Positions 39,594 through 45,157 of a stretch of DNA of 45,536 bases are shown piece after piece (position 1 is the stretch's first letter; the number at the start of each line of letters is the position of its first letter). The notes beneath the pieces were generated by a model. That model saw only the letters and a list, made by a program, of their open reading frames with translations, had not been told where the DNA came from and did not search any database. The position numbers and the translations under genes are program-made. This DNA is from Escherichia phage vB_EcoS_WFI, in sequence record NC_073058.1. One strand, given 5' to 3'.

Positions 39594-41016
39594 TACTTAA
39601 GTCCTCATCAGTAGCTTCAGACCACGCAGGGCGCGGGTCGTCGATTGGTGCCAATACCGGTTTAGCCGGTGCGCGCGTGATTTTATCACACAATTTCGCC
39701 CACACTTTCGGTTTCTCGTCCTTCAATACCTTCTCGGCATCGGTAGGACTGAGCAATGTTTCTTTGTACATTACATCGCGCTTGATCCGGGCCTTCGTGA
39801 AGATTTCAATCACTTCGCTCTCATCCGCCCACTTGCGATTACCTTCCTTACCGGCAACCATCTTGAGGCCCAGCGATTCGCCATCACCCGCCATCACCGC
39901 CTTGAATACTGCGGACTCGATAGCCTTGATGTGCTGACGCATTGCGTCGAGGCCTTCGTATGCATTACGCAGTTCCGCCGCGCTCATAGCGCCATTGGAT
40001 TCTTCCTTATAGCCGCGCTTCGCACGTCGTGCCGCTTTCCGGGCTTCGCGGGCTGTATTGCGGTCGTGGTTGGCGCATTCTTCTTCTGTCGCCACGCTCA
40101 CGTCGTCCGCCAGGTCGTCGTCTGTTGCCGTTGGTGGGGTCATCGTGTCGATGGCGGCCTTAGCGCGGGCACTACACTGATCCGCAAATCGGCACCACTG
40201 ACAGGCGTCAACGCTCGGTCGGAAGTCGGCACGGGTAAGTCCCTTCTTGCCTCGGGAATACGCGTCCAGTGCCGCGACCGCTCGCTTGGACGCAAACTTA
40301 GCGAATATCTCCAGCGCTTCCACTGTAATATCCCACTCCGACGCCCCGCCGCAATACGGCTGGAAGATTACCAGGCGAACGGTCGTAATGTCGTACATGG
40401 TTTGCAGCTTGCGCAGCAGGCCCAGCGCGTACAACATAAGCTGTTTGTTTTCTTTCGCCTCGACCTTATGTCGCCCGGTCTTCAGGTCGCCAACAATAAG
40501 CATGTACGTGCCGTCGGTCTTCTTCATGACCATGACCATATCGGCAGTGCCAAACGTCTTCACCCTGTTGCCGTCTATCTCGAAGCCAGGGTGCAAGATG
40601 CGGGTGAGATCGGCGCGCATTTCAAGCTGGACAAACTCCGCCACTTCAAGGAGCGGTCGCCAGTGGTCGATGTACGCGTCACACTGTTTCACCATATCGT
40701 CGTTGACCAGTACGCCGCCTTTCGGTGCTTTCGGGTGCGCCTTTACCGGCCCCTTACCTTCGTTCTCAACGTAACACCCTTTGTACGTCTTCGCGGATAG
40801 CTTCTTCTCTCCGGCAATGATGCGGTTTAGCACGACTTCTGATACGGTGTGCATACTCGTACCGTTAATCGCAGCTTGCCCGGATTCGTTCGGGATACCT
40901 TTTTCGACTACCAGGGCGGCGGGGCACCCCATCCATTTTTTAGATCCCGATGGCCCGAGTAATGAGTGTTCGGTATTGCTACCGGATTGCGTTTTGCGCT
41001 TTGGTTTAATAGCCAT
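39586..41016 (-). CDS. Cas4/RecB-like PD-(D/E)xK exonuclease
   Basis: 476 aa; C-terminal Cys cluster CQWCRFADQC; co-located with SSB-like gene and polymerase. Confidence 0.55.
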   Translation of the reverse strand: MAIKPKRKTQSGSNTEHSLLGPSGSKKWMGCPAALVVEKGIPNESGQAAINGTSMHTVSEVVLNRIIAGEKKLSAKTYKGCYVENEGKGPVKAHPKAPKGGVLVNDDMVKQCDAYIDHWRPLLEVAEFVQLEMRADLTRILHPGFEIDGNRVKTFGTADMVMVMKKTDGTYMLIVGDLKTGRHKVEAKENKQLMLYALGLLRKLQTMYDITTVRLVIFQPYCGGASEWDITVEALEIFAKFASKRAVAALDAYSRGKKGLTRADFRPSVDACQWCRFADQCSARAKAAIDTMTPPTATDDDLADDVSVATEEECANHDRNTAREARKAARRAKRGYKEESNGAMSAAELRNAYEGLDAMRQHIKAIESAVFKAVMAGDGESLGLKMVAGKEGNRKWADESEVIEIFTKARIKRDVMYKETLLSPTDAEKVLKDEKPKVWAKLCDKITRAPAKPVLAPIDDPRPAWSEATDEDLSNE

Positions 41017-41201
41017 TATTCCACCCTTGTAAACTGGACAATTACATATTTACAGATATTAGCCATTCCCGCCTGTTCGACACGGCGGTGCACTTCATGC
41101 TGCGCATCTATCCAGCACATCGAGGCGTCATGGTTAACAACCATAAAAGAGAAGTGGTCGTTTGTTTTGTGGCAAGTTGCCAGCACGAAGAATTTAGCCA
41201 T
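41016..41201 (-). CDS. hypothetical protein (61 aa)
   Basis: ATG 41201 with RBS GGGAGA. Confidence 0.35.
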   Translation of the reverse strand: MAKFFVLATCHKTNDHFSFMVVNHDASMCWIDAQHEVHRRVEQAGMANICKYVIVQFTRVE

Positions 41202-41452
41202 TATTTCGTCTCCCAACGGTCAATTACTTTTTCCTCCGACGATACGGCAAAGCGAACATATTCCAGATTGGAGTCCGCCCAAATATAGAAGTCGGGGTTA
41301 GTAAATGTGGTGCGCTTAATTTGCGCGGGGTTATCGCGGCGTTTATCTATTACGGCAACGCGTGATTTAAAGTTGCCGGTACGTTCGAATAGCCAATAAT
41401 AAGGGCGCTGGTCGCGTGAATCCACCGCCTCGATTAGCGTGAAGCGTGCCAT
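41201..41452 (-). CDS. hypothetical protein (83 aa)
   Basis: ORF track. Confidence 0.4.
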   Translation of the reverse strand: MARFTLIEAVDSRDQRPYYWLFERTGNFKSRVAVIDKRRDNPAQIKRTTFTNPDFYIWADSNLEYVRFAVSSEEKVIDRWETK

Positions 41453-41462
41453 TGTCTCGTCC

Positions 41463-41494
41463 TCTAAAAATAGGCCCGCAGATTAGCGGGCCGG
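41463..41494 (-). terminator. rho-independent terminator (minus strand)
   Basis: GGCCCGCTAATCTGCGGGCC hairpin followed by TATTTTT on minus strand. Confidence 0.45.
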
Positions 41495-41500
41495 ATAATA

Positions 41501-41626
41501 TTAATCTTCACCGCCGAGTTGTCTATAAACCTCGTCCGGGTCGTCGCCTCTTTCTTCGCAGAAGGCGGTGAATGCCGCCCAATTTTCTGCTATGAAATCG
41601 AGCGTGATTCTCATTTCATAGTCCAT
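41501..41626 (-). CDS. possible small acidic protein (41 aa)
   Basis: ATG 41626; MDYEMRITLDFIAENWAAF...; below ORF-track size cut-off. Confidence 0.3.
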   Translation of the reverse strand: MDYEMRITLDFIAENWAAFTAFCEERGDDPDEVYRQLGGED

Positions 41627-41630
41627 TATA

Positions 41631-42149
41631 TTAATCTTCTAATTCGAAATAAGTTTCGACGATTGCTTTTAATTCCTGGTGGAACTCTTCCACGTCGTCA
41701 TCTTCCAGCTTGGCAACGGATTTAATTTCGAATTCTTCCAGCAGGTCGTCAAATTCGTCGTTTGCGTCGTCGTCATCACCGCCAGCAATAATAGCGGCAT
41801 ACTGCTTGATTTCGTCGCGCATCTCTTTCAGCGGATCGGCATCTTTCTTGCCTTTACCTTTCGCCGGTGCTTTCTTAGATTTCGCCGGGGCTTCTTCTTC
41901 GTCGTCCGCGTCGTCTTCTTCTACGGCTTCTTTCTTAGCCTTGCCCTTTGCTGGCGCTTTTTTGGTCTTAGCCGGTGCTTCGTCTTCAGCGTCGTCATCT
42001 TCGACTACTTCTTCTTTTGCCTTGCCCTTAGCCGGGGCTTTCTTCGCTTCCTGTTTACCAACGGCAGCGCCAGCAGTTTCATAATGCTTAGCGATGGTTT
42101 CCAGTGCTACTACGCCGCGTGTGATCAGGTTTACGATTTGCTCAAACAT
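41631..42149 (-). CDS. Lys/Ala-rich and acidic repeat protein (histone-H1-like repeats, acidic C-terminus)
   Basis: RBS GGAGA before ATG 42149; three tandem units KKAPAKGKAK...EEDDA(E/D)DE; first gene downstream of the strong leftward promoter. Confidence 0.6.
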   Translation of the reverse strand: MFEQIVNLITRGVVALETIAKHYETAGAAVGKQEAKKAPAKGKAKEEVVEDDDAEDEAPAKTKKAPAKGKAKKEAVEEDDADDEEEAPAKSKKAPAKGKGKKDADPLKEMRDEIKQYAAIIAGGDDDDANDEFDDLLEEFEIKSVAKLEDDDVEEFHQELKAIVETYFELED

Positions 42150-42345
42150 TGTATATCTCCGATTGGTTAAGTTTAGGTGTCGGCAGTCAACTTCGTCGGT
42201 GGCCTTAACATAGTGCCAGGTTACGCGTTCTCCCTTTCGGGTAGTGGACCTGGTTATATAATCACGGTTGGGAATCCTGACACTTCGATCCGGCCCCTGC
42301 GTTGCCCCTCTCCAGTTTGCGTCCTGCATCCTGTCGACGGAGTGA

Positions 42346-42375
42346 ATAATAGATTGGTTGCAGGTGGGGTGTCAA
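42346..42375 (-). promoter_or_regulatory. sigma70-like leftward promoter TTGACA-N18-TATTAT
   Basis: Minus strand reads GTTGACACCCCACCTGCAACCAATCTATTAT; about 190-nt leader to ATG 42149. Confidence 0.45.
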
Positions 42376-42492
42376 CAACTAATTTCAAAAAAAAAAGCGC
42401 CGAGGCAAAATGCGACGGCGCTAACCAATAAGAGACAATGAGACGTGATTATTATTACACGCGTGCGCGCCCGTTTCAATATACAAAAGGAG

Positions 42493-42521
42493 TTGACACC
42501 CTGCAATTTTAGGTGTAGTTT
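42493..42521 (+). promoter_or_regulatory. possible rightward promoter TTGACA-N17-TAGTTT
   Basis: GTTGACACCCTGCAATTTTAGGTGTAGTTT; the -35 flank GTTGACACCC...CTGCAA matches the leftward promoter; weak -10. Confidence 0.35.
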
Positions 42522-42552
42522 CGTTGGTCATTAACCAATAGGAGACAGAACA

Positions 42553-42882
42553 ATGCATATCAACGACGCTATCGAAATGTTAACTAAGACCGTAAGCGGT
42601 GAGACAAGCCGGTCCTGGGCTTATACCGATGCCGTTGGTGCGGCGTTATTTGAAATCGAACGCCTGCGCAGTGTCGAAAAAGAATTGCGCGCCAAGCTGG
42701 AATTACTCAACGGTACGGCAGCAAGCAAGCTGCAAAAACACAATGAAGAAATGGAAGAATACAAAAAGCAGGTTATCCGTTTACGCGACGAGGGCAAGTC
42801 CTGGGCGATGATTGCCGAGTTGACCGGAATTAATCAGAGCACCGTGCGCTCCTGGGTACGCAATAATAAAACTTCTAAGTAA
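42553..42882 (+). CDS. HTH-type transcriptional regulator (putative)
   Basis: RBS AGGAGA; C-terminal WAMIAELTGINQSTVRSWV resembles an HTH. Confidence 0.5.
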   Translation: MHINDAIEMLTKTVSGETSRSWAYTDAVGAALFEIERLRSVEKELRAKLELLNGTAASKLQKHNEEMEEYKKQVIRLRDEGKSWAMIAELTGINQSTVRSWVRNNKTSK

Positions 42883-42892
42883 GGCAACGGCA

Positions 42893-45157
42893 ATGAGCTT
42901 AATTAAATTCGCAGTAACAAGACCCGCTAAAAAAGGCGAAAAAGCCAGGGCGGAAAACTTCGAGATGACCACTGATGAGTTTTTCGAATTTATCAATGAT
43001 GCGAAAGAAATCTCCTCGGTGCACATCAACAAGACTGAAGATAAAGCCGAGTATGCGCGCCGCAAGCGTAAGGCCGATGGCATCGTGGCCTATACCAATG
43101 ATGGGTTACGCCGCAAGACCAGTGCGGTCGACCGCTCGATCCTGTTCTTCGATATTGACCGCACCGACACCCGCACATTACGCCGCTGCCGTAAAGCGTT
43201 CACCGACGCTGGTCTGGAGCATGTATTCCACACCACGACCGGCGACCGTCACCCACTGAAAGGCGGCACACGTTGCGCCCGTTTCCTGGTGCTCACTGAC
43301 AAGCCTGTACCGGCTGAAGACCTGGGCCGCGTCCAGTATGCATTGTTAGACCAACTGGGCTTGTCAGATGTGGACTTCGACGATTGTACAAAAGACACAA
43401 ACCGCCTTATGTACCTGCCTCACCAGCAGTCTGTCATAAAGTGCCACTACGGCAAGCGCGCCCGTGTCCGTCGTCTGCTTCGCCTGGCGGATAAGCTGGG
43501 AGTGGAGAAAGAGGAAGTGCGCCGCGAACTGACCCAGGGCGACGACGGCGTGGCGGACGGGATTCTGGATTGGTGCTTCCAGGCTGGCTTTGAACCACTG
43601 TCATCCGGTCGCGGTTATGAAGTGCCTTGCCCGAACGAGCACCTGCATAGCGGCGGCGGGTCGACGGCTATCATGGTTAAGGATGGCGAGATCCGTTTCA
43701 AGTGTATGCACACCGGCAACGAATGCTGTTCCGAACTGAATAAACACCAGCACCTGGCGTTACGTCTGATTGGTATCCCGGACCACTTGAACGTCGAGCC
43801 ACACAACATGTCACGCAAGCAAATCGCCGCAATCCTTCCGGGACTGGACGACGAGGAAGTGGAATCGTGCTATGAACATATTGTTGATGCGGTCGGAGAC
43901 GGCGACGAGTACGGCGAATGCACCGACGCTGACCTGGACAACGAGCCGGTCGCTCTGTTCAGTAAGCACGACCCGATTATCGAAGGCCTGGTCAACTTCA
44001 AATCTACCTGGTATATGGCGGGTGAGTCGAACATTGGTAAGTCGTTCTACGTGCTGGGCCAGATGGGCGCTGTTGCCGCGGGGATTCCGTTCGGTGGCGC
44101 GAAGGTCGTCCAGTCGCATTGCTTCTATTTCGATGCGGAAGGTGGCGAAGCCTCCAACCAGCGTAAGGAAGCATTGCAGATTAAATACGAGCACGACCTC
44201 GACAAGCTGCACATTATCGACCTGCAATCACGCGGCTGGGATATTACCAGCAAGTCAGGCTTGCGCGAGGTTATCAGCTTTATCAACCGCACCGCTAACG
44301 GGGAGCCGGTTGGCCTGGTGGCCTTCGACTCACTCAACCAGACTGTAGCGCTGCGGTCCGCTGATGCCAAACCGTTCGACGAGAACAACGCAAGCGATAT
44401 GGGTGAAGTGGTCAAAGCGCTGAAGTCCATTGCGGAAAATACAGGCGGCAGTGCGGGCGTCATCCATCACCCGGCTAAGGGTGCAAACGGCAGCAGATCC
44501 CCACGCGGGTCCGGCGCGCTTCATGGTGCTGTCGATTCTGCGTTCTTCCTGGAACAGCCGGACGATAATCAGCCAGGCCAACTCAACCTGTATCACGAAA
44601 AATCCCGTAACGGCATCAAGCAAGCGCCGCGTGGCTTCGTCCTGCTCAAGTGCAAAGTTAAGGTGGATCTCCGTAAGTCTGATGCGTTCGAAGCCCACCA
44701 GTCCACCAGCACCGGGCCAGACTTCGGCGATGTGGTTGCCGGTTGGGACGTCAAGCCAATTGCATCCACGCCACGCGACGAGACTCTCTACCTCGTACCG
44801 GTCGCCCTGGCACCGTTCGCTATCGAACAGGCTAAGGCAGCAGGCAAGGCCGCAGTTAAGGAAGAGAACACCGCCGGACCGCGCAACGAGAAAGAGAAGG
44901 TGCTTTATGCGGCACTGGAAAAACTGATGGAAGATAACCCGGACCATACTGGATTCAGTAAATCGGCAATTGTCCGCCAGGCTGGACTTGCGAAAGGTGG
45001 CACATCGACGAAGGCAATTGACGATATGGTGGAGCGCGGCGTGCTCGGGTTTTATACAGATCCACACACCGGGGCCATCTATGGGTCGTCGAATCTGGTC
45101 ATCAAATCGGATATACCCATCACGCTTTCAGCGACCGATGATGACTTAAAAGATTAA
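42893..45157 (+). CDS. primase/helicase fusion (primase-polymerase-like N-domain plus RepA-like RecA-fold ATPase)
   Basis: N-terminal ILFFDIDRTD and HVFHTTTGDRHP; C-terminal Walker A GESNIGKS and motifs VAFDSLNQ, VIHHPAKG. Confidence 0.6.
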   Translation: MSLIKFAVTRPAKKGEKARAENFEMTTDEFFEFINDAKEISSVHINKTEDKAEYARRKRKADGIVAYTNDGLRRKTSAVDRSILFFDIDRTDTRTLRRCRKAFTDAGLEHVFHTTTGDRHPLKGGTRCARFLVLTDKPVPAEDLGRVQYALLDQLGLSDVDFDDCTKDTNRLMYLPHQQSVIKCHYGKRARVRRLLRLADKLGVEKEEVRRELTQGDDGVADGILDWCFQAGFEPLSSGRGYEVPCPNEHLHSGGGSTAIMVKDGEIRFKCMHTGNECCSELNKHQHLALRLIGIPDHLNVEPHNMSRKQIAAILPGLDDEEVESCYEHIVDAVGDGDEYGECTDADLDNEPVALFSKHDPIIEGLVNFKSTWYMAGESNIGKSFYVLGQMGAVAAGIPFGGAKVVQSHCFYFDAEGGEASNQRKEALQIKYEHDLDKLHIIDLQSRGWDITSKSGLREVISFINRTANGEPVGLVAFDSLNQTVALRSADAKPFDENNASDMGEVVKALKSIAENTGGSAGVIHHPAKGANGSRSPRGSGALHGAVDSAFFLEQPDDNQPGQLNLYHEKSRNGIKQAPRGFVLLKCKVKVDLRKSDAFEAHQSTSTGPDFGDVVAGWDVKPIASTPRDETLYLVPVALAPFAIEQAKAAGKAAVKEENTAGPRNEKEKVLYAALEKLMEDNPDHTGFSKSAIVRQAGLAKGGTSTKAIDDMVERGVLGFYTDPHTGAIYGSSNLVIKSDIPITLSATDDDLKD

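Follow-up and report, generated by a model that had tools for sequence, protein, structure and literature searches.

A covarying leader RNA and a candidate small RNA between the divergent early gene blocks of Escherichia phage vB_EcoS_WFI

The window, by which we mean the whole 45.5-kb stretch of Escherichia phage vB_EcoS_WFI DNA analyzed here, is that of a Dhillonvirus, an HK578-like siphophage of E. coli. Two early gene blocks diverge from a 403-bp gap at 42150-42552. The initial annotation had described a non-coding divergent region of about 400 nt at this place, and the gap is indeed free of genes and flanked by ATG codons at 42149-42147 (minus strand) and at 42553. We read it, at about even odds, as the early control region of Dhillonviruses, with three predicted sigma-70 promoters and two putative RNA elements. 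The genes and the signals relevant to its outer layout are the following.

41473-41492, minus strand: conserved intrinsic terminator inside the leftward operon, about 680 nt 3' of the leader element
41631-42149, minus strand: first leftward gene, an ORF for a very acidic 172-aa protein with lysine-rich repeats
42346-42375, minus strand: P_L, leftward early promoter (TTGACA, 18-nt spacer, TATTAT)
42493-42521, plus strand: P_R, putative rightward promoter (TTGACA, 17-nt spacer, TAGTTT), read from the sequence
42524-42538, no strand assigned: palindrome TTGGTCATTAACCAA at the predicted rightward start, read from the sequence
42553-42882, plus strand: HTH gene, encoding a 109-aa protein with a C-terminal helix-turn-helix domain

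The 172-aa acidic protein has no Pfam match and belongs to PHROG 3127, to which no function is assigned, while the 109-aa protein matches the Pfam families HTH_23, HTH_28 and Sigma70_r4_2. ARAGORN detects neither a tRNA nor a tmRNA gene anywhere in the window. A GC-skew minimum at 42.0-42.4 kb merely reflects the switch in gene direction. Of the Dhillonvirus copies with enough downstream sequence for a check, all except one have the leftward-operon terminator.

P_L matches the promoter consensus at 11 of 12 positions and is kept throughout the Dhillonviruses, even where the leader described below is missing, and the HK578 record carries a promoter annotation at the same site. P_R scores under the threshold of our promoter scan and is putative because its -10 element is weak; the HK578 annotation has a promoter at this place too. 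As had been observed at the outset, the two -35 regions share a flank: GTTGACACCC, followed by CTGCAA, is present in both, and these are the sole two exact copies of GTTGACACCC in the window. The palindrome TTGGTCATTAACCAA is kept wherever the HTH gene is present and is lost together with it in HK578 and CHD5UKE2. Its role may be that of an operator or of a hairpin in the 5' UTR.

The RNA of the leftward leader is structured, covaries strongly and is conserved well beyond the genus. Its architecture of about 160 nt comprises seven helices and two branch points, as listed here.

42179-42338, minus strand: structured leader RNA domain, seven helices, defined by covariance-model match and covariation
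42331-42338 with 42179-42186, minus strand: helix P1
42318-42328, minus strand: helix P2, a hairpin with an AGGAC loop
42304-42308 with 42198-42203, minus strand: helix P3
42264-42302, minus strand: helix P4
42255-42261 with 42205-42212, minus strand: helix P5
42248-42253 with 42216-42221, minus strand: helix P6, the CCAGGT/ACCTGG stem
42230-42244, minus strand: helix P7, the CCC-GAAA-GGG hairpin enclosed by P6

The covariance model matches the window once, at 42170-42339 with 162 bits, and finds one copy per phage at 153-187 bits. Covariation statistics were computed on the covariance-model alignment of 35 distinct leader copies, because MAFFT alignments placed P1, P5 and P6 out of register between lineages; in Dhillonviruses the registers of P1, P2 and P5 are shifted, fall outside the consensus model and were read by hand. 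Compensatory double changes occur in 20 of the 45 base pairs (4-6 in controls), 84.1% of the alignment cells are paired (33-45% in slid controls), and the covariation score of 0.300, compared with 0.02-0.06 in controls, was not reached by any of 500 shuffles. The roughly 114 G-U cells in the alignment indicate that the fold is strand-specific. Folded alone, the window leader has no stability beyond that of shuffled sequences (z = -0.62), and thus the evidence for structure is covariation across relatives rather than energy. Minimum-free-energy folds of single copies agree only on P1, P4, P6 and P7. Of the two approaches named in the initial annotation, covariance across relatives therefore bears out the structure, whereas folding of the single leader sequence does not; the hairpins pointed out there are real, and they are P6 and P7 of the larger fold. 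A scan for further covarying columns, such as those of pseudoknots, gave mostly two-clade artefacts, with 96-119 as the sole independent-looking pair.

The pattern of conservation consists of invariant junctions and internal loops together with covarying peripheral helices. A core of about 70 nt is invariant across phage families and includes the GGA hairpin loop, GGAGAGG, the P4 hairpin and the junctions. The GGA of the P2 loop is present in 35 of 35 copies, while the remaining GGA motifs are partly base-paired, and P7 carries GNRA loops. Three other ideas about this stretch were discarded. A coding leader was rejected since an AUG in P2 opens 10 codons in the lineage type L038 and is missing in tunus. 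GGCGGCAGGATG was considered as an ops/RfaH-like element, but it has a C in place of the key T, and Dhillonviruses do not have the motif; this idea was dropped. A replication origin or single-stranded DNA structure was rejected on the strand-specific G-U pairs, the fixed promoter and the GNRA loops in P7, and also because the leader is missing from relatives with the same replication genes.

The 35 distinct copies are distributed over six to eight unrelated groups of virulent enterobacterial siphophages. The BLAST matches to the leader lie in co-oriented gaps that carry no annotation, in Tempevirinae, Murrayvirus, Serratia MQ-4, Bas97 and others, and the core is near-identical even in phages with no flanking proteins in common. 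A sigma-70 promoter precedes the leader in every group. The distance from the end of the -10 box to the invariant GGAGAGG is 30-32 nt in 14 of 16 lineages, which places the beginning of P1 1-4 nt past the predicted start site. On the other side, the start codon lies 105-118 nt 3' of the leader 16-mer in 13 of the 17 lineages with a callable first ORF, and the end of the leader is separated from the first start codon by about 25-35 nt in most lineages, irrespective of the gene. This first gene differs in every lineage, belonging each time to a different PHROG without known function or to none, and a search for a protein family common to the leader flanks returned only spurious ORFs overlapping the leader itself. 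The linker between leader and ribosome-binding site is open and A/C-rich, and the Shine-Dalgarno region behind the leader is predicted to be open (unpaired probability 0.5-0.77). No terminator directly follows the leader, nor is there a conserved sequence that could sequester the Shine-Dalgarno site.

The leader is also optional. It is absent from WF5505, YD-2008.s, Ioannina and CHD5UKE2, as well as from Jahat, in contrast to tunus, which has it. Each leader-less relative retains a small 5' hairpin at the same place. Because natural relatives dispense with the leader, its role in cis cannot be essential. A search with Rfam 15 at E <= 10, covering window positions 41000-43500 and six loci of other lineages, returned nothing on the leader. 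Among 185,579 species genomes there is one match, on a phage-sized contig, and no copy is present in the E. coli genomes searched or in plasmids. A second k-mer scan, using GGAGAGGNGNNACGCAGGGGC, added no further lineage, and the single additional locus that it returned (L063) is rejected by the covariance model. We found no description of this RNA in the literature, where coverage of the 408 supplementary files of PMC8040213 extended to the first 200. By these sequence comparisons, the leader is a member of an RNA family that is restricted to phages and lacks annotation in the sources searched.

The second element emerges from a repeated motif. The initial annotation had noted a direct repeat, TAACCAATARGAGACA. 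Both copies exist on the plus strand, at 42422-42437 (one base from the 42423-42438 first given) and at 42532-42547, but a third copy had been missed. This one is inverted and lies at 42154-42169 on the minus strand (TAACCAATCGGAGATA), just 5' of the leftward ATG. Three matches occur in the 45.5-kb window where 0.32 are expected, and none of 100 shuffles had three. The features built around these copies are given below.

42147-42169, minus strand: initiation region of the first leftward gene, UAACCAAUCGGAGAUAUACAAUG, with the third, inverted repeat copy
42387-42422, minus strand: predicted intrinsic terminator of the small RNA, an inverted repeat (AGCGCCG...CGGCGCU) followed by a U-run
42387-42446, minus strand: candidate small RNA of about 57-60 nt, 5'-ACGUCUCAUUGUCUCUUAUUGGUUA-hairpin-U10, predicted fold
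42422-42437, plus strand: central repeat copy, TAACCAATAAGAGACA, whose complement would be the small RNA seed
42451-42479, minus strand: predicted small RNA promoter (TTGAAA, 17-nt spacer, TG-n-AATAAT, an extended -10)
42531-42555, plus strand: initiation region of the HTH gene, UUAACCAAUAGGAGACAGAACAAUG

The second direct copy lies within the initiation region of the HTH gene and hence on its ribosome-binding site, as first noted. Together, the two initiation regions, left and right, constitute an inverted repeat of 15 nt with 93% identity. Judged from its sequence and position, the repeat is a translation-initiation motif, UAACCAAU-N-GGAGA, common to both divergent first genes. The left initiation region is near-invariant in Dhillonviruses, with one-base variants in HK578 and Ioannina, and Jahat (Drexlerviridae) has a similar AACCAAUC plus Shine-Dalgarno motif. 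In the HTH initiation region, only UUAACCAA is retained across relatives. The central copy is invariant in relatives except for a 1-nt deletion in Ioannina.

The central copy locus is probably a small RNA gene with its own promoter and terminator. Its predicted promoter matches 10 of 12 consensus positions in addition to the TG, its hexamers are invariant in 13 + 5 distinct Dhillonvirus sequences, and a promoter is also annotated here in HK578. The terminator hairpin has a predicted energy of -16.7 kcal/mol and, apart from two compensatory double changes in the stem in Ioannina, is invariant in the 18 distinct Dhillonvirus sequences; the WF5505 record annotates a terminator at this site. The seed, too, is unchanged in these 18 sequences except for the 1-nt deletion in Ioannina. 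The locus is present in 153 Dhillonvirus records, mostly with 95-99% identity, and is more conserved than the flanking genes. The predicted fold of the candidate begins with an open 5' seed of 24 nt, followed by the terminator hairpin and a run of about 10 U. A promoter, a Rho-independent terminator with U-tail and a single-stranded seed, all predicted from sequence, give it the layout of a base-pairing small RNA of the Hfq type. Rfam returns only chance-level matches at the locus (17-21 bits, where the gathering scores are 43-72).

Across the window, the seed finds its best non-self target in the HTH initiation region, with a predicted duplex of -25.2 kcal/mol, compared with a mean of -9.8 kcal/mol (sd 3.3); a second calculation gives -24.2 kcal/mol for this duplex. 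The left initiation region reaches -18.5 kcal/mol, and right initiation regions of other phages reach -17.5 to -21.7 kcal/mol. Most relatives have weaker pairing at the HTH initiation region than the window does. Energies of this size are rare among shuffles, the exception being HK578, in which the gene is replaced. The pairing between small RNA and targets has no covariation support because the seed, the left initiation region and the central copy are almost invariant, and the likeness of the seed to the initiation regions could be that of a mere duplicated initiation region.

Our favored explanation, to which we assign a probability of about 0.5 as a whole, combines a portable cis-acting leader module with an anti-RBS small RNA. 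The leader is most likely, we infer, a portable 5' module that acts in cis by protecting the mRNA end and docking a host factor. The first 160 nt or so of the P_L transcript (42338-42179, minus strand) would fold into the closed seven-helix domain, and P1, by closing the 5' end, might protect the transcript from 5'-end-dependent decay. The invariant core would meanwhile dock a conserved host component, perhaps CsrA or the 30S subunit as suggested by its CAGGAUG and GGAG motifs, and this docking could set the expression level of the first early cistron. The small RNA, for its part, would start at its own extended -10 promoter, run leftward and stop at the intrinsic terminator; the central repeat copy would be the template of its seed, and the seed could pair across both flanking ribosome-binding sites and thereby repress both genes. 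The start sites of leader and small RNA, and the existence of the latter, are predictions from consensus matches. The initial annotation had proposed a cis-regulatory RNA, of which the conserved and covarying structured RNA holds; its regulatory effect, like the transcription of both RNAs and the host partner, is something that we infer. Two observations were counted against parts of this explanation: the elaborate invariant core exceeds what 5'-end protection needs, and the GGA and GGAG motifs, which suggest docking of CsrA or the 30S subunit, are so short that they could have a structural role.

Some readings treat the repeat differently. It had been suggested that the region is an autoregulatory switch, and a related but unlikely proposal is that the repeated TAACCAAT is a DNA operator for the HTH protein, with the central copy as a further operator rather than an RNA gene. 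There are four AACCAAT copies within 400 bp, one of them part of the palindrome TTGGTCATTAACCAA at the rightward start site, and the first rightward gene does encode an HTH protein. However, two copies lie on ribosome-binding sites, far 3' of their promoters, and three copies, including the central and left ones, are unchanged in HK578 and CHD5UKE2 despite a different first rightward gene. Moreover, the AACCAAUC plus Shine-Dalgarno motif also occurs in a Drexlerviridae leader, and an operator leaves unexplained the invariant promoter and terminator that flank the central copy on the opposite strand, which fit a small antisense-type RNA better. These same facts do not support the notion of an autoregulatory switch. 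It is extremely improbable that the central copy is instead the ribosome-binding site of a plus-strand ORF of 24-26 codons at 42440-42514. An ATG does lie just 3' of the AAGAG of the central copy, and the frame is open in all relatives examined, but AAGAG is a weakened Shine-Dalgarno sequence, and the plus strand lacks a promoter upstream of it. The peptide is not conserved either: a pair of compensating 1-nt indels shifts the frame of the central 13 codons in half of the relatives, and the 24-codon ORF was rejected on this basis.

For the leader, a bolder reading, which we consider possible but less likely than not, is that it represents a new functional-RNA class with a specific molecular partner. 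It would be either a sensor of a small ligand or host factor, by which strictly virulent phages tie their earliest genes to the state of the host, or a decoy for a defense or regulatory protein of the host, carried on a promoter-linked cassette that spreads between unrelated phage families. The invariant core of about 70 nt, the optional presence within genera and the restriction to phages are compatible with such a class. The leader might also be an accessory RNA that acts in trans as a decoy or sponge, with a host protein, a host small RNA or a component of anti-phage defense as its target; this seems possible yet doubtful, as does the corollary that it is released from the 5' end of the early transcript and sits before a gene merely as a means of early expression. 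Its patchy occurrence inside genera resembles that of accessory or anti-defense genes, the core is near-identical among phages without common flanking proteins, and the leader has its own promoter in every lineage and heads blocks of small genes with no assigned function; in tunus, the gene behind the leader has a match that one Klebsiella phage record labels an anti-RM protein. Yet the leader never appears by itself as a gene that ends in a terminator of its own, we identified no signal for a 3' end, and a constant gap of 25-35 nt to the start codon would be unexpected for an RNA acting purely in trans. The same spacing is not required of a processive antiterminator resembling the HK022 put RNAs, which bind the beta' zinc-binding domain of RNA polymerase and suppress downstream terminators; on this reading the nascent leader RNA would bind host RNA polymerase and cause terminator read-through. 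We consider this decidedly unlikely, even though the leader starts right after an early promoter, as putL does, its carriers depend on the host polymerase, and phages of the same hosts have its core in invariant form. In the Dhillonvirus operon, a strong conserved intrinsic terminator does lie 460-680 nt downstream, before nuclease and ssDNA-binding genes, and several further lineages have terminators 350-2000 nt downstream, but Dhillonviruses without the leader keep the same operon, and no terminator occurs within 1.4-4 kb in Tempevirinae or in the L042/L048 group. Nor do 160 nt and seven helices resemble the approximately 70 nt and two stem-loops with a triplex of put. Finally, a riboswitch-like aptamer that senses a host metabolite or signal and gates early genes would be in keeping with the invariant junctions and internal loops, the covarying outer helices and a closing P1 beside the ribosome-binding site. 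We regard it as very unlikely, given that each lineage has a different downstream gene, that there is neither a terminator nor a conserved Shine-Dalgarno-sequestering sequence, that the Shine-Dalgarno site is predicted to be open, and that no Rfam riboswitch matches even at E <= 10.

The E. coli phages that are isolated most often include Dhillonviruses and Tempevirinae, some of which belong to the BASEL reference collection. To our knowledge, their early regulation has not been studied. As a candidate for a new class of functional RNA, the leader is well defined: its core is invariant, its place relative to promoter and start codon is fixed, and unrelated phages exchange it. Its role is directly testable through natural pairs with and without it (JohannBuxtorf_Bas84 and Haito_Bas83; tunus and Jahat). 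The unit of promoter, leader and ribosome-binding site may also serve as a portable expression part. If the small RNA is real, then a virulent phage would throttle both divergent early operons with one anti-RBS RNA.

Several known systems invite comparison. The put RNAs of HK022 (putL and putR) are cis-acting antiterminators of about 70 nt with two stem-loops, the first of which contains a triplex (PMC9378689). Like them, the leader is a structured phage RNA that has no protein partner of its own and begins a few nucleotides from the start site of an early promoter in a phage dependent on host polymerase (PMC9378689). It differs from them in its size (about 160 nt), in its seven helices and two branch points, in its optional presence among members of a genus and in its constant distance to the start codon, and no sequence similarity is evident. 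With riboswitch aptamers it shares a P1-closed, multi-helix 5' domain, invariant junction nucleotides and covarying stems, but there is no constant downstream gene function, expression platform or Rfam class match.

RNAs that bind CsrA, which include the CsrB/CsrC sponges and CsrA-controlled leaders, are characterized by the repeat CAGGA(U/C/A)G and by a SELEX consensus, and display GGA in hairpin loops at two or more accessible sites. The leader resembles such targets in that P2 presents CAGGAUG (CAGGAUG and CAGGACG in the window) with GGA in the loop, and GGA recurs in GGAGAGGAG, P4 and the majority of the Shine-Dalgarno sequences. It differs from them because one GGA alone lies clearly in a hairpin loop and the rest of the conserved fold is not accounted for by CsrA; the CsrB/CsrC/Rsm families of Rfam do not match it. 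The 5' stabilizer hairpins of bacterial and phage mRNAs, of the ompA type, are simple and not conserved in sequence. A helix closing the RNA no more than 1-4 nt from its 5' end, and the small hairpin kept by leader-less relatives, recall these stabilizers, whereas an invariant core of about 70 nt common to several phage families does not.

The PeSL cassettes of T4-type phages combine an early promoter with stem-loop motifs that flank variable genes, and are short composite promoter-terminator motifs with many copies per genome (PMC2839356, PMC4122927). The leader is likewise a conserved cassette with an early promoter beside hypervariable small genes, common to otherwise differing phages. Unlike PeSLs, it is a single-copy element of siphophages with a covarying fold of 160 nt and no terminator. 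As for the small RNA, P22 sar overlaps its target on the opposite strand, and the C4 RNA of P1/P7 and the CI RNA of P4 are processed from the target transcript. The candidate (42446-42387) overlaps neither initiation region (42147-42169 and 42531-42555) and so is not a cis-antisense RNA of the sar type, and the Rfam C4 family has no match in the scan of window positions 41000-43500. It would nonetheless share with these phage anti-RBS RNAs a place in an early or immunity control region and a single-stranded part complementary to a ribosome-binding site. In contrast to sar, C4 and CI, the candidate has a predicted promoter and terminator of its own, and would act in trans, through imperfect pairing, on two targets 90 and 270 nt away.

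As the initial annotation proposed, the region 42150-42552 lies between the leftward and rightward gene blocks, and the observation of a control region with a structured leader and direct repeats is both confirmed and extended by our analysis. The surrounding 1.5 kb exhibits 99.9% identity with Escherichia phage vB_EcoS-101114BS4 and 80-95% identity with approximately 170 further records, nearly all from Dhillonvirus, a group of HK578-like virulent siphophages of E. coli. The flank described as common to both -35 regions, GTTGACACCC, occurs exactly twice in the window, at the two divergent -35 boxes. To these features we add a third repeat copy, a second minus-strand promoter, and a minus-strand hairpin with a U-run.

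Features of the control region
41631-42149, minus: first gene of the leftward block, encoding a 172-aa, extremely acidic protein
42154-42169, minus: third repeat copy (left), two mismatches, directly upstream of the leftward ATG
42338-42179, minus: folded leader RNA, helices P1-P7
42346-42375, minus: leftward promoter, P_L
42422-42387, minus: candidate small-RNA terminator hairpin and U-run (inverted repeat I4)
42422-42437 and 42532-42547, plus: central and right copies of the 16-mer repeat TAACCAATARGAGACA
42479-42451, minus: candidate small-RNA promoter from the consensus scan, TTGAAA-17-TG-n-AATAAT
42493-42521, plus: putative rightward promoter, P_R
42553-42882, plus: first gene of the rightward block, encoding a 109-aa protein with a C-terminal helix-turn-helix (HTH)

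The acidic-protein gene is followed by genes for a DUF2800/PD-(D/E)XK nuclease and then an Enc34-type ssDNA-binding protein, and the HTH gene is followed by a primase/helicase gene. The acidic protein carries KKAPAKGKAK-type repeats and belongs to PHROG 3127, a function-unknown family; it has no Pfam match, and the phage welsh record annotates a repeat_region within its gene. It may be a DNA mimic or a nucleoid-directed protein. Within the leftward operon, an intrinsic terminator (41473-41492, minus strand; GGCCCGC-loop-GCGGGCC plus a U-tract) is retained by nearly all Dhillonviruses checked, and its loop is found in both orientations (CTAATCTG, CAGATTAG, CATATTAG). In HK578 (locus L016, 1654-2082) and CHD5UKE2 (locus L066, 719-1083), a longer, unrelated first rightward gene replaces the HTH gene, and the P_R spacer and right initiation region also differ.

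A sensitive BLAST search with the gap matched other Dhillonviruses, whereas other taxa matched 42167-42327 alone. These taxa include tunus, slyngel, Motto, and KMI8 of the Tempevirinae (Drexlerviridae), as well as Murrayvirus Lumpael, Serratia phage MQ-4, HeidiAbel_Bas97, PT1, Arya, IME279, and KA2-1, and each copy resides in an unannotated gap in the same orientation as the neighboring genes. Scanning sequence collections with conserved k-mers yielded 35 distinct copies of the leader; apart from a few short metagenome fragments, their sources were all phage genomes or contigs of phage size (30-53 kb). The only match among 185,579 species genomes was on a metagenome-bin contig of 42.7 kb, and there was none in 5,426 E. 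coli genomes or 72,556 plasmids. No protein family common to the flanks of the copies was found. Five records name non-enteric hosts (ON843697, Pseudomonas phage Motto; MG065648, MG065680, and MG065638, Campylobacter phages; OQ221563, Acinetobacter phage NJ01), but their sequences are those of Tempevirinae or Dhillonvirus, with 82-97% identity to E. coli phages. Their host labels look doubtful.

An alignment of eight lineages contains the invariant blocks GGAGAGG, ACGCAGGGGC, GGATTCCCAACCGTGA, AGAACGC, and CCGACGAAG. The stems between these blocks vary in a compensatory manner, both in hairpins (CCC-GAAA-GGG, GCC-ACCA-GGC, CCG-GAAA-CGG, CTC-GAAA-GAG) and in longer pairings (CCAGGT/ACCTGG, CTATC/GATAG, CATTGG/CCAATG). 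The CCAGGT/ACCTGG stem around CCC-GAAA-GGG, already noted in this phage, is present at 42216-42253. A seven-helix fold derived by hand served as the basis for a covariance model. The domain is closed by P1 and contains a small hairpin, P2, with GGA in its loop; P3 closes a three-way junction from which the long, invariant P4 hairpin and an arm of P5, P6, and P7 extend. Each phage has exactly one match to the model, scoring 153-187 bits, and four loci where the conserved 16-mer occurs by chance give none.

In the model-based alignment, which is fitted to the structure, 84.1% of cells form standard pairs, compared with 33-45% when the 3′ partners are slid by 1-3 columns as a control. Double, compensatory changes affect 20 of 45 pairs (4-6 in the control), and the covariation score is 0.300 (0.02-0.06). 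None of 500 shuffles attained the observed percentage paired, double-change counts, or score. At each position of P6 there are three to five types of pair, and Dhillonviruses themselves contribute two independent compensatory changes in this helix. On the opposite strand, approximately 114 G-U cells would become C-A mismatches, and thus the fold is specific to the transcribed strand. In the Dhillonvirus group, P1, P2, and P5 form in shifted registers that the consensus scores as unpaired and that we read by hand (GUCGACAG/CUGCCGAC, UGC-AGGAC-GCA, UUAUAUA/UAUG(U)UAA). The covariance check across relatives that had been suggested therefore bears out the earlier proposal of a structured, cis-regulatory RNA insofar as the leader is a conserved RNA with compensatory stem changes across lineages. 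We regard it as almost certain that this structure has been maintained by selection.

The leader also appears to be undescribed. It matches no Rfam family even at E ≤ 10, ARAGORN detects nothing in it, and no conserved ORF runs through it. The conserved 16-mer was not found as a sequence string in the literature searched, and searches on Dhillonvirus, Drexlerviridae, phage non-coding RNAs, and motif discovery turned up no description of either RNA element considered here. A large catalogue of RNA motifs from the human microbiome likewise does not contain the leader sequence in the first 200 of its 408 supplementary files. The GenBank record of HK578 annotates three consensus promoters in the control region, and that of WF5505 the small-RNA terminator, with no RNA proposed in either.

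The position of the leader is fixed at both ends. In 14 of 16 lineages the best -10 hexamer ends 30-32 nt upstream of the invariant GGAGAGG, and therefore P1 begins 1-4 nt past the predicted start site; the two exceptional lineages have an alternative -10 at the same place. The first start codon lies 105-118 nt past the conserved 16-mer in 13 of the 17 lineages with a callable first ORF, and the A/C-rich linker from P1 to the Shine-Dalgarno sequence is predicted to be open (unpaired probability 0.5-0.77). The ORF itself differs per lineage, encoding members of separate PHROGs of unknown function, a lipoprotein-like protein, or a membrane protein. No terminator was found directly after the element. 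Its P2 loop is CAGGAUG (CAGGAUG and CAGGACG in the window), which is the repeat of CsrB-type RNAs, and GGAGAGGAG is Shine-Dalgarno-like.

The element is also dispensable in natural relatives. Four Dhillonviruses, WF5505, YD-2008.s, Ioannina, and CHD5UKE2, have retained P_L and P_R together with the left initiation region and the small-RNA locus, and in each the 150-nt leader interior is replaced by 12-20 nt forming a small 5′ hairpin. BLAST coverage indicates the same loss in Envy, Haito_Bas83, and JLBYU37, and k-mer scans find no copy anywhere in the YD-2008.s and Envy genomes. Among Tempevirinae, Jahat shares the tunus promoter, but both the element and the first small gene are missing; the Jahat leader has a small GGGCG...CGCCC hairpin, then AAAACCAAUCAGGAGA-N7-AUG. 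That 60-aa gene, tunus_48 (locus L018, 1293-1475), directly follows the element in Tempevirinae, is missing in Jahat along with it, and has ~80% DNA identity to a gene annotated "anti-RM protein stp1" in Klebsiella phage Roth47. A small tunus ORF upstream of the leader (L018, ~1938-2108) has ~78% DNA identity to RB49-like T4-type myoviruses, which points to a probable exchange of early modules between phage families.

Given the fixed distances to start site and start codon, the open Shine-Dalgarno sequence, the interchangeable cargo gene, and the 5′ hairpin retained in relatives that lack the element, we consider a portable cis-acting leader module the most likely function, with a probability of roughly 0.45. 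Such a module would give the early transcript a protected 5′ end and would also offer a conserved host component a docking site, through which expression of the first early cistron would be tuned. A host partner is argued for by a core that is invariant across phages sharing only hosts. The main competing explanation is a trans-acting accessory or decoy RNA, with which the patchy, accessory-like distribution is consistent. A put-like antiterminator is possible, since Dhillonviruses have a strong, conserved terminator 460-680 nt further downstream. However, relatives have the same operon without the element, several lineages lack terminators, and the architecture is unlike put. Because the leader is not associated with particular genes and has no expression platform, a classical riboswitch is unlikely.

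The repeat invites a different explanation. Its three matches are all that occur in 45.5 kb, where 0.32 are expected, and none of 100 shuffles attains three. The left and right copies constitute the initiation regions of both first genes (UUAACCAAU-N-GGAGA...AUG), the left one resembling that of T7 gene 10, and AACCAAUC with a Shine-Dalgarno sequence is seen again in other lineages' leaders. The suggestion of an autoregulatory switch, with the repeat as a DNA operator for the HTH protein, is weakened, as both the left and the central copy are still present in phages that have exchanged the HTH gene for another. The central copy as the ribosome-binding site of a plus-strand mini-ORF is similarly weakened, because two compensating indels alter the middle frame. 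Other short repeats are a fourth AACCAATC copy in the P_L spacer (42354-42361, minus) and a 12-nt repeat common to the left leader and P_R spacer (AAGTTTAGGTGT/AATTTTAGGTGT; 42169-42180, 42505-42516). The palindrome TTGGTCATTAACCAA (42524-42538), across the predicted rightward start and 5′ UTR, accompanies the HTH gene wherever found and is lost in HK578 and CHD5UKE2, which have a different first gene.

The central copy is flanked by two minus-strand signals, on one side the second promoter and on the other the hairpin, which the loop limit of the consensus scan hid and which is visible as inverted repeat I4. The predicted transcript (~42446-42387) begins with 24 unpaired nt complementary to the central copy and continues into a hairpin of -16.7 kcal/mol and a run of ~10 U. 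The two promoter hexamers are invariant in 13 + 5 distinct Dhillonvirus sequences, and so is the terminator; the seed differs only in Ioannina, by a 1-nt deletion, and the terminator stem of this phage has undergone two compensatory double changes. We found the 101-bp locus in 153 records, all of them from Dhillonvirus and most of them 95-99% identical, compared with ~90% for the flanking genes. In a scan of 18,200 windows covering both strands of the 45.5 kb, where energies averaged -9.8 kcal/mol (sd 3.3), the HTH initiation region came out as the strongest non-self partner of the seed (-25.2 kcal/mol). Dedicated runs gave -24.2 kcal/mol for that region, -18.5 for the left one, -17.5 to -21.7 for right initiation regions of other Dhillonviruses, and -14.2, not significant, for HK578, where the HTH gene is replaced. 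Seed-target pairing has no covariation support because the partners hardly vary.

These features match the profile of a predicted small anti-RBS RNA that would act on each of the two divergent operons. Judged from sequence, the chances slightly favor such an RNA being made, and its regulation of both initiation regions is a more tentative proposal. The spacer of its promoter holds a perfect 8-bp palindrome, CACGCGTG (42457-42464), ~30 bp upstream of the P_R -35. This palindrome hardly varies among relatives, which is not typical of spacers, and a protein may bind there. Single-nucleotide indels at ~42449/42450 (small-RNA -10 to start) and ~42483 (between the divergent -35 boxes) occur together in most relatives compared, and thus total length is usually preserved.

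The leader would share its working principle with known leader RNAs, yet falls outside every family tested. The candidate small RNA is like the phage anti-RBS RNAs sar and C4; unlike them, it would be transcribed and terminated by signals of its own and would act in trans on two targets.
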